In this document: in pieces, positions 1,184-33,513 of the stretch
Numbering within the stretch: position 1 is the first letter of the stretch
Layout of the letters: each line of letters opens with the position of its first letter
Assembly: GCA_964413845.1 (NCBI GenBank)
Contig: CAYPTJ010000008.1
Span: forward strand, 1-43,335
Reading direction: 5' to 3'
Length of the DNA: 43,335 bases
Origin: an uncultured Candidatus Saccharibacteria bacterium
GTDB taxonomy: Bacteria > Patescibacteriota > WWE3 > 9FT-COMBO-53-11
Notes under the pieces: generated by a model
Told to the model about the DNA's origin: nothing
The model's database searches: none
The model's input: the letters and a program-made list of their open reading frames with translations, nothing else
Position numbers and translations under genes: made by a program

Positions 1184-1364
1184 TTTCGTTCCCTCCTTTC
1201 AGGGTTCAAATAACCACGAGTCCCTCGTGGTAGGGTTATCAGAGTACTACGATTCCGATACTATTTGCTATTATAGGATAAATCGGTTTGGAAGTCAAGA
1301 AGCGGTGGTGCCCCTGGCAGGATTCGAACCTACAATCTTCTCCTTATCCCGCCTTTGGCGGGAG

Positions 1365-1464
1365 TAAGGCGTTCGCTTCGCTCACACCCGTTTCCTTCGG
1401 AAATAAGGCGTTCGCTTCGCTCACACCCGTTTCCTTCGGAAATAAGGCGTTCGCTTCGCTCACA
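1365..1464. repeat. tandem repeat, 39-bp unit x ~2.6
   Basis: TAAGGCGTTCGCTTCGCTCACACCCGTTTCCTTCGGAAA at 1365 and 1404, plus a partial copy at 1443. Confidence 0.95.
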
Positions 1465-1495
1465 ACCTTGTCCGCCTCTGGCGGATAGTGATATC

Positions 1496-1571
1496 TGGTG
1501 CCTCCGGCAGGATTTGAACCTGCAATCTTCGCCTTAGAAGGGCGCTGCTCTATCCGTTGAGCTACGGAGGC
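1496..1571 (-). tRNA. tRNA-Arg(TCT), intact, nested inside the outer tRNA-Arg
   Basis: 76-nt cloverleaf, anticodon loop CT-TCT-AA, encoded CCA. Confidence 0.95.
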
Positions 1572-1602
1572 CTAACAGATATCGCGTCGAAGGGAGCTGC
1601 TC

Positions 1603-1622
1603 CCTGCCTGCCGGCAGGCAGG
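1603..1622. repeat. perfect 20-bp palindrome CCTGCCTGCCGGCAGGCAGG
   Basis: Self-reverse-complementary. Variants occur near 6702, 17763 and 27585. Confidence 0.9.
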
Positions 1623-1791
1623 TATCCATTAAGCTACAGGGGCATCCTCATCTATTTTCGAGCTCTGCGAGAAAACAAGCTCTATGCTTATTTTAACGCA
1701 GTTTTGGTAATTTGTGAATTCCTGCGGACGAGGCCCGCAGCATCTTCCATTTCGCTCGCCTGGCTCGTGAAATGTTAAACTGCTCTTGTCA

Positions 1792-3794: not shown

Positions 3795-6397
3795 CAGTTT
3801 GAAATGATAGTCGGGGATCGCGGACTTGAACCGCGGACTTGAACCTCCGACTCGGCAAAAAACCTTTTCTTAACAAACTCTATTGCTCCAAAGTATGAGG
3901 TAAGCACGCAAACAATCCAAACCCATACCAAAGGGGGTAAGAGGGTAAACGCAAATAAGGAGTGGCCAATTTTCAAAAACGGTAATCCCACAACTGCAAG
4001 ACTGGAAAACACGCTCGCGGCAAGGAGCCACCTGCTGGGAGCACTTCTGTAAAACGGAAGGCGTGTCCGAATCGCAAAAGTTACGATCATTTCAGAAAGT
4101 GCAGATTCAACAAACCAAGCAGTACGAAAGACAGAAGGGTCAAGTTTCCAGAGGACAAGAAGGGGAAGGATCAAAGATAAATCAAAAAAGGAGCTAAGAA
4201 GTCCAAAGTAAACCATAAACCGTGCAATCATCTGAATATCCCAACGCCCCGGCTTTCTAATAAACCCCCGATCAACATTGTCGGTTACAATGGTCAATAA
4301 GGGAATATCGCTAATGAAGTTGTTAAGTAAAATTTGAGAGGGTAGCAAGGGGATAAAGCGTAAAAACAAAGAGGAAAGCATTACAGTAAACATATTCCCG
4401 TAATTGGCGCTAATGGTATTGAGAATGTATTTGGTAATGTTTCCAAATGTTTTCCTTCCTGTCTCAATCCCTTTGGCCAAAACTGTCAAATCTTTCTTAA
4501 GAAGGACAATGTCCGCGGCTTCTTTAGCGATCTCTGTACCTGTATCAACTGCAATTCCTACATCAGCCGCCTTTAGGGCAGGAGCGTCATTTACCCCGTC
4601 CCCCAAGAACCCAACGATGTGGCCCTCTTTGGTGAGGCTAACCACAATTTGGTGCTTTTGATCTGGAGTAACGCGGCCAAATAAGTTGTATCTTTTAACA
4701 ACTTCCTCAAATTCTCCCCTTTTTAACTTTGCCAAAATATCGCCTGTGATCACTTCCGAACCACTCGCTAGCAGACCAGTTTCTTTTGCTACCTTCTTTA
4801 CTACGGTGGGACTATCCCCACTTATGACCTTAATCCCCACACCTAGTCTCTCGAGAAACTGTAGGGACTCCATTGCCGTCTTTTTAACTGGATCACTAAA
4901 AAGTAAGTAACCTTCAAAGATTAAGTTTTCTTCTTGAGGGGTGGACTCTGCTGGCTGAAGTTTCCTTTTCGCTAAGGCCATAACACGGTAACCTGATTCC
5001 TCCATCTTCCTAACTTCATGAAGAATGCTTTCTCTGGTGAAGTTATCAATTCTTACTCTCCTCCCTTTCCTCATAACTTGAGTGCTAGCGTCCAGAACAC
5101 TCTCTGTTGCTCCCTTAACGATCATCCACGTATCCTCCTTGCTTCTCACAACCACACTATTTCTTTTTCGCACAGAGTCAAATTCGTTTCGTGCCACAAA
5201 GTGGCATTCCCTTACCTTTTCTTTTAACTTCGTGGCTTTTCTGCTCTCCCAGATCGCTATATCGATGGGGCTTGATGCCGCACCCCTTACTCTATCCTCA
5301 AACCAGCTTGAACAAAGAAGAGCATCAAGGAGAATTTCTTGGTTACTTTTGCCATCTAGATCTAAACTGTCAACCAAAGAAAAAATTCCCTCTGTTAGAA
5401 CCCCGGTTTTGTCGGTACACAGCGTATCAATGTTTCCAAGATCCTCAATTGATATCAAGCGCTTTACGACCACCTTTCTTTTCGCCATCCGCAGGGCTCC
5501 TTGTGACAAAGTAACCGTTGTGATCACTGGTAAAAGCTCTGGGGTAATCCCCACAGCTAAAGCTAAAGCAAACAAAAGCGAGGTAAGAATCCCTTTCCCC
5601 AAAATTGCGTTTGAGGAAAAAACAAATAACGCCATAATAAGAGTCACTCGGAACAGGAAGGCGCTAAATTTCCTTGTTTCCTTTTGGAAGTCAGAGGGAG
5701 GAGCTTTTTCTTCTAATATTTTTACTGTCTTTCCCAAAAAGGTTTGATCTCCTATAGCAGTCACTACCCCTTGCCCAATTCCCGCACTGACAAAGGTACC
5801 CATGAAAGCCATATTGGATAGCTTCTGTGGTTGGGTATACTCCTTGCTAACACTCCCACTTTTCTTAAGAACTGGAAATGATTCACCCGTTAATACTGCC
5901 TCATCTATCATTAAGCCATTACAGGAGAGCAGCCGAATATCTGCCGGAACGCGATTGCCGAGTTGAAGGGACACTATATCCCCGCCTACCAAATCCTGAC
6001 TATTAAGTCTGATCCAACGCCCATCTCTTAGGGCATGTGCTTTGTGGGTGATGTATTTTTTTAACTTTGCCAAGGCTTTTTCGGCTCGATATTCTTGGAA
6101 AAATCCAAGAAAGACACTCAGGATAACGAGGGAGAAGATCACCGCCGCATCAAGCCTTTCTCCTAGCAAATAAGAAATAGCCGTGGCCAAAAGAAGGGTA
6201 ATAATTAGCCAATTTTGAAACTGGAAGATGAGGACTGAAAGAACAGATCTTTGTTCTTTGCCTAAGACCTTATTTGGCCCGTGCTGTCGCAATCGTTCCT
6301 GCGCCTCAACACTTGACAGACCTGATGGTCTAGTAGAGAGATGCTTAAGGACTTCTTTTTCTGACAACGACCAGAGTGGCTTAATTTCCCTTAGCAC
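3794..6397 (-). CDS. mgtA: magnesium-translocating P-type ATPase
   Basis: TGES, AVGITPELLP, DKTGVLT, GDGVND. The SANYGNMF and LPSQILLNN segments fit the P3B (MgtA) subfamily. Confidence 0.85.
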   Translation of the reverse strand: MLREIKPLWSLSEKEVLKHLSTRPSGLSSVEAQERLRQHGPNKVLGKEQRSVLSVLIFQFQNWLIITLLLATAISYLLGERLDAAVIFSLVILSVFLGFFQEYRAEKALAKLKKYITHKAHALRDGRWIRLNSQDLVGGDIVSLQLGNRVPADIRLLSCNGLMIDEAVLTGESFPVLKKSGSVSKEYTQPQKLSNMAFMGTFVSAGIGQGVVTAIGDQTFLGKTVKILEEKAPPSDFQKETRKFSAFLFRVTLIMALFVFSSNAILGKGILTSLLFALALAVGITPELLPVITTVTLSQGALRMAKRKVVVKRLISIEDLGNIDTLCTDKTGVLTEGIFSLVDSLDLDGKSNQEILLDALLCSSWFEDRVRGAASSPIDIAIWESRKATKLKEKVRECHFVARNEFDSVRKRNSVVVRSKEDTWMIVKGATESVLDASTQVMRKGRRVRIDNFTRESILHEVRKMEESGYRVMALAKRKLQPAESTPQEENLIFEGYLLFSDPVKKTAMESLQFLERLGVGIKVISGDSPTVVKKVAKETGLLASGSEVITGDILAKLKRGEFEEVVKRYNLFGRVTPDQKHQIVVSLTKEGHIVGFLGDGVNDAPALKAADVGIAVDTGTEIAKEAADIVLLKKDLTVLAKGIETGRKTFGNITKYILNTISANYGNMFTVMLSSLFLRFIPLLPSQILLNNFISDIPLLTIVTDNVDRGFIRKPGRWDIQMIARFMVYFGLLSSFFDLSLILPLLVLWKLDPSVFRTAWFVESALSEMIVTFAIRTRLPFYRSAPSRWLLAASVFSSLAVVGLPFLKIGHSLFAFTLLPPLVWVWIVCVLTSYFGAIEFVKKRFFAESEVQVRGSSPRSPTIISN
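3810..3852 (-). repeat. att-like duplicate of the 3' half of the outer tRNA-Pro
   Basis: GTCGGGGATCGCGGACTTGAACCGCGGAC (3810-3838) equals 6450-6509 once the 31-bp insert 6469-6499 is removed. Confidence 0.85.
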
Positions 6398-6447
6398 TTT
6401 TTCACTCTTAATCTACACTAAAGCTCAAAAGGAATGGAGGTTATATC

Positions 6448-6748
6448 TGGTCGGGGATCGCGGACTTGTCATGCCAAAGGCAGATCCACCTTTGGTGGAA
6501 ACCGCGGACCTTCCGACTAAATTTTGGTCGGGGTGGAGGGAATTGAACCCACTACTTCTCGGTCCCAAACCGAGCGTTCTACCGATGAACTACACCCCGA
6601 CGAACGTTAGTGAGGCGGGATGCTAGGTTCGCCGCTAGGCGAGCCGTCCACCCCGGAATTGTTATAGGACTGCTCTTAGCCTCCGCCAAAGGCGGATCGC
6701 CCCTGCCTTGCCGGCAGGCAGGTCTGGTGGAAACTGAGCTAATCCCCG
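6448..6748 (-). pseudogene. interrupted outer tRNA-Pro-like gene; anticodon not reconstructable
   Basis: 5' CGGGGATTAGCTCAGTT..GGCTAAGAGCA and 3' GGAAGGTCCGCGGTT|CAAGTCCGCGATCCCCGACCA have complementary acceptor strands. Inserts lie in the D-loop (6682-6731), the T-loop (6469-6499) and the anticodon arm. Confidence 0.75.
6525..6599 (-). tRNA. tRNA-Pro(TGG), intact, nested
   Basis: 75 nt, anticodon arm CTCGG-TT-TGG-GA-CCGAG, CCA end. Confidence 0.95.
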
Positions 6749-6750
6749 TT

Positions 6751-6807
6751 TGCCCCACTGCGCCAAAGCTTCGAGGGGCATCCTTCCGAAGCTTTAGCGA
6801 AGGAGGA
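6751..6807. repeat. palindromic doublet repeat
   Basis: Reverse complement nearly matches 17723-17800, which carries an extra CCTG..CAGG palindrome. Confidence 0.85.
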
Positions 6808-6909
6808 TGGTGGGCGGAGAGGGATTTCCTTCGACCACGCTCAGGATAAACTTCTCATCCCTCCCAGCCATGGTGAGCCTGCCGAATCCATGGTGGGCGG
6901 AGAGGGATT
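6807..6909. mobile_element. miniature element flanked by a 20-bp duplication that includes the tRNA-Leu 3' end
   Basis: ATGGTGGGCGGAGAGGGATT at 6807 and 6890. The interior has TCCTTCGA..GCTCAGGAT and ATGGTGAGCCTGCCGAATCCA. Confidence 0.65.
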
Positions 6910-6977
6910 CGAACCCTCACGCTTTCAACAAGCACGAGATCTTAAGTCTCGCGTGTCTGCCATTTCACCACCCGCCC
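6891..6977 (-). tRNA. tRNA-Leu(TAA)
   Basis: 87 nt with long variable arm, anticodon arm CGAGA-CT-TAA-GA-TCTCG. Confidence 0.95.
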
Positions 6978-9276: not shown

Positions 9277-9350
9277 TGGCTGGGAGGCTTGGATTCGAAC
9301 CAAGATTTCCAGATCCAAATTCTGGCGTGCTACCGTTACACCACCCCCCA
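9277..9350 (-). tRNA. tRNA-Gln(TTG)
   Basis: 74 nt, U1-A72, anticodon arm CCAGA-AT-TTG-GA-TCTGG, ends GCCA. Confidence 0.95.
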
Positions 9351-9356
9351 TTAAAG

Positions 9357-9605
9357 CTAAATTTTATCTTTGAATAATTTCTTTAGGAATCTCCTTCCCA
9401 CTCCAGATTTCAAATAATGTTCCCGACGCCCCGCTTCCTTAAGAGTTTGATATTCCTCCGAATGCAACAACTCCCAAGGTTTATATCTTTTCGTGAAGCG
9501 CATCTTTCCAGAATTATGCTCTTTCAGTCTTCGTTTAATATCATCTGTTACCCCAACGTAAGATTTTCTGGCCCGAACACTTTTTAATACATAAACGTGA
9601 TACAT
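9357..9605 (-). CDS. stand-alone GIY-YIG nuclease (YhbQ/UPF0213-like)
   Basis: VYVL...YVGVT...RRLKEHN...FTKRYKPW...RE..LKSG.GR signature. Confidence 0.92.
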   Translation of the reverse strand: MYHVYVLKSVRARKSYVGVTDDIKRRLKEHNSGKMRFTKRYKPWELLHSEEYQTLKEAGRREHYLKSGVGRRFLKKLFKDKI

Positions 9606-9606
9606 A

Positions 9607-9678
9607 CGCTGTCCTATCCGCCCCGCCTTTAGGCGGGCGAGATCTCGCCCGAAGGGCGGACCGTTAGACGACCCGGCA
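9607..9678 (-). pseudogene. orphan tRNA 5' half (Gln-like) with a 44-bp D-loop palindrome insert
   Basis: TGCCGGGTCGTCTAACGG|TAGGACAGCG after removing 9617-9660; D-stem GTCT/GGAC. No matching 3' half was seen. Confidence 0.6.
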
Positions 9679-9786
9679 ACGCCTTAAAACAATAATATCA
9701 GGAAAAAAAAGAAGCAACAAACGCCCTCCTTAGTATACAGGAAAGACGTACATCGGAACTTAGGTTTACACTAATTCAACGTTTCT

Positions 9787-17430: not shown

Positions 17431-17466
17431 TGGGCGATTAGCTCAACGGTAAGAGCGCTTCGTTTA

Positions 17467-17596
17467 TCCCACACCGAAGCAAAGCTTAGTGCGGGAGTAG
17501 CGACGAGGGTCTGTAGCTCAGCGGCAAGAGCGTTCGGCTTACATCCGAAAGGTCCCTGGTTCGAATCCAGGCAGGCCCACCAGACCTCGTCGCGTC
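17467..17596. mobile_element. 130-bp anticodon insert carrying a complete tRNA-Val(TAC)
   Basis: Begins TCCCAC..GCGGGAGTA and ends TCGCGTC; inverted repeat GCGACGAGG/CCTCGTCGC surrounds the cargo. Confidence 0.7.
17507..17582 (+). tRNA. tRNA-Val(TAC), intact, nested
   Basis: 76 nt, anticodon arm TTCGG-CT-TAC-AT-CCGAA, CCA. Confidence 0.95.
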
Positions 17597-17646
17597 CATC
17601 GAAGAGGTTGGGGGTTCAAATCCTCCATCGCCCACCATTAAACTTC

Positions 17647-17722
17647 GCCGAGGTAGCCAACGTGGTCACGGCACACGCCTGAAGAGCGTGGGATGTGGGT
17701 TCGATTCCCACCCTCGGCACCA
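17647..17722 (+). tRNA. tRNA-Phe(GAA)
   Basis: Anticodon arm CACGC-CT-GAA-GA-GCGTG, 76 nt. Confidence 0.95.
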
Positions 17723-17800
17723 TCCTCCTTCGCTAAAGCTTCGGAAGGATGCCCCTCGAAGCCCTGCCTCGCCGGCAGGCAGGCTTGGCGAAGTGGGGCA
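17723..17800. repeat. palindromic doublet with a nested CCTG..CAGG palindrome
   Basis: Matches the reverse complement of 6751-6807 plus a 21-bp insert. Confidence 0.85.
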
Positions 17801-33018: not shown

Positions 33019-33093
33019 GGCCCTGTCGTCTAGCGGTTCGGACACTGCCCCTTCAAGGCAGAAATACGGGTTCAACTCCCGTCGGGGCCACCA
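33019..33093 (+). tRNA. tRNA-Glu(TTC), with C at position 33
   Basis: Anticodon arm CTGCC-CC-TTC-AA-GGCAG, 75 nt, CCA. Confidence 0.88.
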
Positions 33094-33513
33094 TCCTTCG
33101 AGACGTTCGGCTGAGCTCAGTCGAAGCCCAGGCTCAGGATTGAAAATGTACTTCGTCTATATTCTCCTTTGTGATAAAGACTTTTTCTACGTTGGTTTAA
33201 GTGATAATCTTGAGGAGCGTTTACAAGATCATACCTCGGGCTATAGCCCATACACCCGTAGATTTAGTGAGATCGAACTTGTGCATAGTGAGCGATATCC
33301 TAAACGCTCCCAGGCAGAGAGGAGAGAGAAGCAGATCAAGGGTTGGTCGAAAGCAAAGAAAAAGGCTTTGATTGGTGGGGATAGGGAGAAGCTTAGAGAA
33401 CTAAGTAAATCTAAATCCTGAGCTTGGTGAAGGATCTTGCGGCGGGTACTATATGGTGAGCCTGCGAAGCAGCGAGCTTGTCGAGCTGTCGAACCATCCC
33501 GTCGGGGCCACCA
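33094..33513 (+). mobile_element. GIY-YIG cassette at the tRNA-Glu 3' end
   Basis: 17-bp direct repeat TCCCGTCGGGGCCACCA at 33077 and 33497; palindromic TTCGA..GCTCA / TGAGC..TCGAA ends. Confidence 0.75.
33146..33421 (+). CDS. stand-alone GIY-YIG nuclease (YhbQ/UPF0213-like)
   Basis: YFVYIL.C...YVG.S..L..RL..H...RE.QIKGWS..KK.ALI. Confidence 0.93.
   Translation: MYFVYILLCDKDFFYVGLSDNLEERLQDHTSGYSPYTRRFSEIELVHSERYPKRSQAERREKQIKGWSKAKKKALIGGDREKLRELSKSKS

Follow-up and report, generated by a model that had tools for sequence, protein, structure and literature searches.

The 43,335-nucleotide (nt) stretch of DNA analysed here (the window) is contig CAYPTJ010000008.1 of assembly GCA_964413845.1, from an uncultured Candidatus Saccharibacteria bacterium, an ultra-small groundwater member of the candidate phyla radiation (CPR). 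On its minus strand, from position 6748 down to 6448, an intact tRNA-Pro(TGG) gene lies in the anticodon arm of a second, disrupted tRNA-Pro gene whose D and T loops each carry a further, palindromic insert. We consider it likely that the original tRNA-Pro(UGG) gene of this locus was wrecked by a selfish cassette carrying a tRNA gene of its own, and that it was thereby replaced at the level of DNA. The source genome comprises 609,686 bases in 54 contigs, is 92% complete and contains 43 tRNA genes; it is labelled G000, the window being its contig C8, and belongs with its relatives to a family set of 10 genomes labelled up to G009.

Cargo and outer genes were called with ARAGORN and with a covariance scan of the whole window against Rfam at the gathering score, which returned 12 tRNA matches only, with no group I intron and no other family. 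Nests of one tRNA gene within another were located by a custom scan for complementary acceptor ends plus a T arm and by a 17-nt pattern search of the 10 family genomes. The custom scan took the place of the intron mode of ARAGORN, which was dropped because it mostly fused adjacent tRNAs into false chimeras. The layout of the nest, read along the tRNA strand, is as follows (REP, repetitive extragenic palindrome).

6732..6748, minus strand: 5' part of the outer tRNA-Pro (acceptor 5' strand, D stem 5' strand, start of the D loop), CGGGGATTAGCTCAGTT, 17 bases
6682..6731, minus strand: D-loop insert, 50 nt, with two REP-like hairpins, CCTGCC...GGCAGG at 6702-6722 and TCCGCCAAAGGCGGA at 6682-6696
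6670..6681, minus strand: outer tRNA-Pro, end of the D loop, D stem 3' strand and positions 26-27, GGCTAAGAGCAG; D stem GCTC/GAGC
6656..6669, minus strand: 14 unassignable nt, TCCTATAACAATTC, either eroded outer anticodon arm or older insert DNA
6600..6655, minus strand: cassette leader, with the stub CGGGGTG at 6649-6655, GACG-hairpin-CTAGC at 6622-6648 and 22 nt to the cargo
6525..6599, minus strand: cargo, intact tRNA-Pro(TGG) with encoded CCA (ARAGORN; Rfam RF00005, 65.1 bits against a cut-off of 29 bits)
6512..6524, minus strand: trailer AAATTTAGTCGGA, 13 nt, whose TTAGT pairs with ACTAA of the leader
6500..6511, minus strand: outer tRNA-Pro, variable loop, T stem 5' strand and first two T-loop bases, AGGTCCGCGGTT; 12/12 identical to positions 43-54 of Pro(TGG) of G009
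6469..6499, minus strand: T-loop insert, 31 nt, hairpin TCCACCAAAGGTGGA plus a TGCC..GGCA hairpin
6448..6468, minus strand: outer tRNA-Pro, rest of the T loop, T stem 3' strand, acceptor 3' strand and ACCA, CAAGTCCGCGATCCCCGACCA; 19/21 identical to positions 55-75 of Pro(TGG) of G009

The boundaries of the two loop inserts, and the placing of an intact tRNA-Pro(TGG) within an insert in the anticodon arm, agree exactly with the original prediction, and the ACTAA before and TTAGT after the cargo that it had listed are both present. The outer acceptor stem still pairs at 7/7 positions (ATCCCCG/CGGGGAT), its 3' strand ending in AUCCCCGACCA. The D-loop insert folds into two hairpins (-13.7 kcal/mol), and an arm of the T-loop insert is complementary to an arm of the D-loop hairpin, so that both inserts belong to one and the same family. 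In the fold of the whole anticodon-arm insert the leader pairs with the trailer; TCGGA in the trailer may be a remnant of the 3' strand of the outer anticodon stem. The distance from the D arm to the cargo is 70 nt (6669->6600, minus strand), and the stretch TCCTATAACAATTC between D arm and leader has no resemblance to any Pro anticodon arm. One detail of the earlier description had to be corrected: the segment had been read on the plus strand as GAC...GGCGGGA and likened to reversed termini of the Arg and Val inserts of the window, whereas on the tRNA strand the leader reads CGGGGTG|GACGG. Its left end, GACG, is that of the Arg nest (CTTC|GACGCG) and points the same way, for which reason a reversed cargo unit was rejected, and the GGCGGGA of the Arg nest is one arm of a palindromic repeat. 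The interval 6448-6748 contains no open reading frame (ORF), and a scan for sigma-70-like promoters detected none inside the nest; a consensus-only match at 7279->7252 (minus strand) was not used. As a side observation, the start of the leader, CGGGGTGGACGG (6644-6655), shows 92% complementarity to the final 12 stem bases of the cargo (6529-6540); by pairing with these 3' strands of the T and acceptor stems it could compete with the acceptor stem in the precursor.

The junctions of the nest are bridged, with 0-1 differences, by contigs of four other DNA runs, possibly from one sampling campaign (bridging contigs X18, 6300-6686; X8, 6619-6826; X15, 6300-6657). Since contigs from other runs bridge its junctions, the nest is real DNA, and an assembly chimera can be ruled out. 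The contigs of the four runs hold no variant with an empty site, a result that is uninformative about its absence. The metatranscriptome runs that were found contain only 0.04-0.07 of the words.

The outer halves derive from a single gene with the anticodon TGG. The pattern search of the 10 genomes found uninterrupted genes starting with CGGGGATTAGCGCAGTG in G008 and G009, both of them tRNA-Pro(TGG). The segment 6748->6733 matches positions 1-16 of both at 15/16, and the alignment of the G009 gene to the outer halves breaks exactly at the T-loop insert; tRNA positions 17-42 of the global alignment are unreliable (spurious small blocks), so that only its end blocks were used. This alignment, which the original prediction had proposed as its check, thus identified the original anticodon, and an origin of the halves from two unrelated genes is contradicted by a Pro(TGG) gene of G009 that matches both. 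Because the uninterrupted outer gene of the relatives is tRNA-Pro(TGG), cargo and wreck share their anticodon. The earlier failure to rebuild an NGG anticodon was reproduced as well: excision of single segments, with 5' exon ends from 6678 to 6600 combined with 3' exon starts from 6524 to 6504 and with both loop inserts also removed, gave an NGG anticodon in 0 of 1659 variants in ARAGORN. From this result we conclude that the outer gene is dead at this locus. Neither ARAGORN nor Rfam calls the outer shell; only the inner gene is seen by them.

The cargo is the only Pro(TGG) found among the 43 tRNA genes of the genome. It belongs to another sequence lineage than the outer gene, with identities of 69/75 to Pro(TGG) of G003 and 68/75 to Pro(CGG) of its own genome, as compared to only 55/75 to the outer type. 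Leader and cargo together are 80% identical over 131 nt to the leader and Pro(CGG) on contig C45 of the same genome, and 80% and 77% identical to loci in G008 (C27) and G003 (C8), respectively. A strict search for the GGACG-hairpin-CTAGC motif gave 12 copies in the genome versus 0-2 in shuffled sequence (for example C2:234-257, C45:18316-18340 and C53:22513-22539); in three of the 12 cases a tRNA follows after 14-22 nt, and 7-12 nt copied from the 5' end of this tRNA immediately precede the motif. The copy in the focal leader has one stem mismatch and is therefore not among the 12, and another imperfect copy heads the leader before Cys on C46. A reading of the motif as a promoter (TTGGAC ... 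TAGCAT) was dropped because the spacing of the boxes varies from 15 to about 20 nt. On C45, where G008 and G009 have an intact Pro(CGG), an 8-nt stub and a 7-nt stub are followed by the leader and a different Pro(CGG). As the CGGGGTG before the focal leader resembles a stub of this C45 type, the focal locus is possibly two layers deep, and the stub suggests a trace of at least one earlier round of replacement.

Comparison with the relatives shows presence/absence polymorphism of the inserts. In G008 nothing precedes the outer-type Pro(TGG); in G009 this gene is likewise intact but preceded by an 18-nt stub plus a GACG leader. G003 has the same stub of an outer-type Pro(TGG), 18 nt long, and after it a GACG-hairpin leader and an inner-type Pro(TGG). 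On contig C8 of G003, a 7-nt 5' stub, a leader and Pro(GGG) come before a 3' relic, which begins with the anticodon and carries a T-loop insert. The outer-type Val(TAC) is uninterrupted in G007 and G008, where it is syntenic and directly follows the same Leu(GAG); since the site is empty in these two genomes, the junction A35|C36 of the Val nest in the window is fixed. The Val nest of G004 has lost A35 from its outer gene and has an insert in the D arm. On contig C16 of G006 (L025:1335-1600), three 3' relics, each beginning at CAT (position 36), are stacked behind an intact Val(TAC), with no 5' halves upstream; the right junction is precise and the left side lost. The second of these relics is 38/41 identical to the 3' half of the inner Val of the window, for which reason we regard this inner Val as invader in the window and as victim in G006.

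The focal locus is one of five same-anticodon nests in the 0.61-Mb genome. The other four are listed below.

C3:24425->24230: Pro(GGG) nest; the outer gene reads ...CTCGCATGG| (ATGG|) around a Pro(GGG) cargo
17432..17637, plus strand: Val(TAC) nest in the window, split at A35|C36 by a 130-nt insert (17467-17596) with an intact Val(TAC) at 17507-17582
1306..1643, minus strand: Arg(TCT) nest in the window, split at C35|T36 by a 242-nt insert with an intact Arg(TCT) at 1496-1571
C7:144-346: Leu(TAG) nest with the insert at 35|36

The inserts of the nests are 118-242 nt long with conserved ends. When the insert is removed at 35|36, ARAGORN calls Val(TAC), Leu(TAG) and Arg(TCT), in 3/3 cases with the same anticodon as the cargo; for Arg, the call is made only after removal of a 20-nt palindrome from the outer D loop (1603-1622). 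In the C3 Pro nest, positions 36-43 are missing from the outer gene. That three tRNAs differing in sequence are all split precisely at 35|36 is the best indication that structure rather than sequence may be recognised. The original prediction had placed Val, Arg and Pro in a series of increasing decay. The insert counts it gave are correct (0, 1, and 2 plus a lost anticodon arm), while the order in time is undated and, in our view, plausible but unproven. Sequence divergence provides no clock, because the Val relic, with 71/76 identity to its intact counterpart in G007, has not diverged further than the intact Leu(GAG) beside it, for which identity is only 73/88. By a rough tally, tRNA scars are found at about 15 of the 43 tRNA genes of the genome. 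As a side observation, the Arg insert also holds a TCCGCCAGAGGCGGACAAGG hairpin and three tandem copies of a unit of about 45 nt (about 1350-1470).

The palindromic inserts in the loops of the focal relic belong to families dispersed throughout the genome. Hairpins of the form [TC]CC[GA]CC-N3-5-GG[CT]GG[GA] gave 67 genome matches versus 0-3 in five shuffles, and CCTGCC...GGCAGG hairpins 26 versus 0 in five shuffles. Within 300 nt of an intact tRNA, an interval that makes up at most 4.8% of the genome, lie 21 of these 93 matches, some of which overlap; the mask of long open frames covers 92% of the genome and gives no separation of intergenic from genic hairpins. The composite in the focal D loop recurs with 96% identity at G000:C9:7181-7228, and in both Pro nests the loop inserts come after ...GTT. 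There are four Y1_Tnp matches in the genome, and three ORFs of about 240 amino acids (aa) score 35-44 bits on Pfam Y1_Tnp; their best NCBIfam match is the REP-associated tyrosine transposase (RAYT; REP_Tyr_transpos), at 40-46 bits against a cut-off of 80 bits. On the grounds of their many dispersed copies, we classify the loop inserts as REP-like repeats. The four Y1 paralogues (about 240 aa, IS200-type domain) are located as follows; one of them adjoins two tRNA-Ala genes.

C42:5849-6076: Y1 paralogue
C35:235-519: Y1 paralogue
C35:9228-9512: Y1 paralogue
C18:5539-5781: Y1 paralogue

Small ORFs of the GIY-YIG type are associated with tRNA genes in this genome and in the family. The Pfam GIY-YIG model has eight matches in the genome, one in a frame of 454 aa, one under the cut-off and six in small ORFs, and all six small ORFs are located 25-128 nt from a tRNA gene. 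In the eight relatives examined with ARAGORN on the 700-nt flanks of each match, 16 of 20 small GIY-YIG matches are within 200 nt of a tRNA; G001 has none. The small ORFs encode 82-93 aa with no recognisable DNA-binding domain, and the two in the window score 58-60 bits on GIY-YIG, with no other notable match. No such ORF lies inside or beside the insert of the focal nest, the nearest being at 9357-9605; they are present at 6 other tRNA loci and beside the C45 cassette, the closest paralogue of the focal cassette, where the ORF lies 128 nt downstream. Two arrangements recur. In one, a 5' relic with hairpins is followed by the GIY-YIG ORF and an intact tRNA (Asp on C53, Ile(TAT) on C22 and Gln(TTG) in the window); in the other, a tRNA is followed by the GIY-YIG ORF and an exact 17- or 18-nt repeat of the 3' end of the tRNA (Glu(TTC) in the window and Trp on C15). 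The Trp element (C15:7360-7803) is homologous to the Glu(TTC) element, and their bounding repeats begin in the T loop. In front of the G002 homologue of the Val insert of the window is a sequence that we take for a GIY-YIG remnant with a frameshift. The two loci in the window are given below.

9277-9700, minus strand: Gln(TTG) locus, with the 5' stub TGCCGGGTCGTCTAACGGT and hairpins, an 82-aa GIY-YIG ORF (9357-9605) and an intact tRNA-Gln(TTG)
33019-33513, plus strand: Glu(TTC) element, with a 93-aa GIY-YIG ORF (33140-33421) and the 17-nt repeat (33497-33513)

Taken together, the data are consistent with the following course of events. A cassette consisting of the GACG-hairpin-CTAGC leader, a complete divergent tRNA-Pro(UGG) and a trailer pairing with the leader would have entered the anticodon arm of the resident gene, and its cargo would have taken over decoding, probably transcribed from the old promoter and released by RNase P and 3' processing. 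The old halves would then have lost their function, REP-like palindromes would have entered the D and T loops, the anticodon arm would have eroded, and the halves would eventually be reduced to stubs. Cassettes of this family probably invade same-anticodon tRNA genes repeatedly within the bacterial family, the survivors being either those replacements that restore the same decoding or the products of a cassette aimed at its own kind. As for the driver, a small free-standing GIY-YIG nuclease might make the break, with homing-like repair capturing or copying the tRNA-bearing segment; we give this a little less than an even chance. The insertion, the shared anticodon, the decay of the old gene and the association of nuclease ORFs with tRNA genes are shown by the data; which enzyme cuts, how the cassette is copied and how the cargo is expressed are inferred. 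More tentatively, and with greater doubt, we suggest that tRNA genes of these ultra-small bacteria could be under continual attack by same-anticodon replacement cassettes, launched by shape-reading GIY-YIG nucleases of about 80-90 aa that cut at 35|36 or in the T loop, which would result in a turnover through stacked relics in the manner of Russian dolls.

Several observations weigh against this proposal. The link of the GIY-YIG ORFs to the focal nest is only associative, since the nest holds no nuclease ORF, and 4 of the relatives' 20 GIY-YIG matches have no tRNA in their 700-nt flanks. Recognition of structure at 35|36 is unproven for nucleases of the GIY-YIG type and would also fit an event at the level of RNA; an RNA-level origin is possible, as the genome encodes the RNA ligase RtcB and one reverse transcriptase. 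In neither Pro nest is the right junction cleanly at 35|36. The outer genes of the Val and Leu nests are still perfect cloverleaves once the insert is removed, and relaxed constraint is not supported for them, the Val relic being no more diverged than its neighbour; these two intact-looking genes might still be spliced. Finally, all nine palindrome inserts that could be placed by eye are in D or T loops or arms, and 0 of the 9 are in the acceptor or anticodon stems of the tRNA relics. Such a restriction is odd for plain neutral decay.

The same replacement at the level of DNA could have come about without a GIY-YIG break if the cassette were a REPIN-type element moved by the RAYT-like (IS200-type HUH) transposases. 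The strict copies of the GACG hairpin motif are mostly located away from tRNAs, the pairing of leader and trailer gives the insert hairpin ends, the genome encodes the Y1_Tnp ORFs described above, and transposases of this kind act on folded single-stranded DNA, which is a possible reason for insertion into loops. We nevertheless regard this route as unlikely: the RAYT matches remain below the NCBIfam cut-off, and the left junctions (GTG, AAG, TGG, TTC) lack the common target motif that IS200/IS605-type elements require. Moreover, the shared anticodon of cargo and host would be accounted for only through selection, and the proximity of 22 of the 26 small GIY-YIG ORFs to tRNA genes would be left unexplained. 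The insert might also be the remnant of integrase-borne islands or prophages that were mostly deleted and left attL/attR scars in the tRNA gene. Islands that enter tRNA genes, for which the anticodon loop is a frequent site, push aside a 3' fragment of the gene (PMC4383910), the stacked 3' fragments of G006 resemble tandem att scars, and the genome has two tyrosine recombinase genes. Here, however, the whole tRNA is new, inner and outer genes being 55/75 identical with different acceptor stems; no direct repeat flanks the insert, 5' relics are retained, the integrase matches are on C6 and C22 only and none is on the window contig, and the inserts measure only 118-242 nt and have conserved ends. 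An origin from islands is thus highly improbable.

A functional split gene, in which the insert is an intron, RNase P and 3' processing free the inner tRNA and a ligase such as RtcB joins the outer halves, one transcript thus yielding two tRNAs, is also very unlikely at the focal locus. In its favour, RtcB is encoded, leader and trailer form a stalk that raises the cargo above the anticodon region of the outer gene, the position 35|36 is common to the inserts in Val, Leu and Arg, whose outer genes fold once these are removed, and a comparable phage case has been read as an intron (PMC6784885). At the focal locus, though, none of the excisions gives a Pro anticodon and two further loop inserts would have to be removed. 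No self-splicing intron family was matched, and the domain of the tRNA splicing endonuclease (tRNA_int_endo, PF01974) has 0 matches in G000, whose 92% completeness leaves this absence unproven, and matches in 4 archaea used as control. By established enzymology, RNase P leaves ends that RtcB does not join. In addition, the relics of the relatives are cut to stubs or to stacked 3' halves, and nothing would be gained from a second tRNA of the same anticodon. The preference of the original prediction for replacement over splicing is therefore supported at this locus by an outer gene that cannot be restored, by its palindromes, by a cargo that is the sole Pro(TGG) and by uninterrupted genes in relatives.

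The literature searched, which left most subscription journals outside its coverage, contained no description of bacterial tRNA-in-tRNA nests or of a link between GIY-YIG ORFs and tRNA genes in the CPR. The only published precedent found is that of the Lak megaphages (Devoto et al. 2019), where the insert in a tRNA-Thr(TGT) is itself a predicted tRNA and variants with and without the insert occur (PMC6784885). It shares with the nests described here the tRNA-like insert within a tRNA gene and the filled and uninterrupted variants; it is a single phage case interpreted as an enigmatic intron, and the passages available from that report mention no decay of relics, no stacking and no link to a nuclease. 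The closest counterpart to the GIY-YIG ORFs is SegB of phage T4, a GIY-YIG homing endonuclease encoded in a tRNA cluster, which is described as recognising a motif of the T-psi-C stem-loop and as driving the inheritance of its own gene plus neighbouring tRNA genes (PMC2330249). Common to both is a small GIY-YIG gene among tRNA genes, and the start in the T loop of the repeats that bound the Glu and Trp elements recalls the motif of SegB. In contrast to SegB, the ORFs reported here come from a CPR cell, encode only 82-93 aa and are known from their sequence alone, and the nests, which lack an ORF, have a complete replacement tRNA lodged within the anticodon of the earlier gene.

Genomic islands as catalogued by Islander also target tRNA genes, often in the anticodon loop, restore their function, displace fragments and stack, but they span kilobases, encode an integrase and restore only the 3' part via an identical core (PMC4383910); the nests, unlike islands, consist of 118-242 nt with a complete divergent tRNA and no recombinase. 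REP and REPIN elements are described as extragenic and as associated with RAYT transposases (PMC3116915, PMC3733652). The short palindromes in tens of copies, the RAYT-like ORFs and the GACG (= CGTC) tag beside the stem of the leader resemble them, with the difference that the palindromes occur here inside the loops of tRNA relics and that the ORFs are below the RAYT cut-off. Group I introns, finally, occur in anticodon loops of bacterial tRNAs and are sometimes mobile by means of a homing endonuclease (PMC3984707). The focal nest resembles them as an anticodon-loop insert in a bacterial tRNA gene and differs in that no core was matched, the non-tRNA part of the insert is below 100 nt, the site, 35|36 in the Val, Leu and Arg nests, is inside the anticodon and the host gene cannot be restored.

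If the proposed reading is true, tRNA genes are no passive landing pads and can be replaced wholesale by mobile copies of themselves, which would allow the translation apparatus to be turned over horizontally in the CPR and would be a source of systematic annotation errors in the form of split, stacked and stub tRNA fragments. It would also point to a nuclease that possibly reads the shape of nucleic acids instead of their sequence. The focal locus would add a late stage, in which an invaded gene falls out of use and REP-like palindromes then settle in it, and this stage would argue against the intron reading of the published phage case; besides, the locus led to a second Pro nest, to empty sites and to counts of GIY-YIG ORFs.

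The tRNA set of G000 (43 genes) lacks Ile(GAT), Ala(TGC) and Ser(GGA) and has Ile(TAT) and two Arg(GCG); as the genome is 92% complete, the absent genes may lie in unassembled rRNA regions. Next to the focal nest there is a further tRNA locus with a small element.

6808..6977, minus strand: Leu(TAA) neighbour, with the tRNA at 6891-6977, a 64-nt miniature element and a 19/19 repeat of the 3' end at 6808-6826

This miniature contains no ORF and is homologous to an element after Ser(GCT) on C17; both are small versions of the arrangement in which a tRNA, a GIY-YIG ORF and a repeat of the 3' end follow one another. A repeat of about 40 nt, TCCTCCTTCGCTAAAGCTTCGGAAGGATGCCCCTCGAAGC, directly follows a CCA end at 6768-6807 (minus strand) and 17722-17762 (plus strand); at its start it is similar to TCCTTCGA, the left end of the GIY-YIG elements that follow Glu and Trp. 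On C53 (22540-23071, minus strand), a full-length Asp-like relic, with GAGTC pentaloop hairpins in place of its anticodon and T loops, is followed by the GIY-YIG ORF, the intact Asp(GTC) and two tandem 48-nt units, each of which ends in a 3' Asp relic with a hairpin as T loop.

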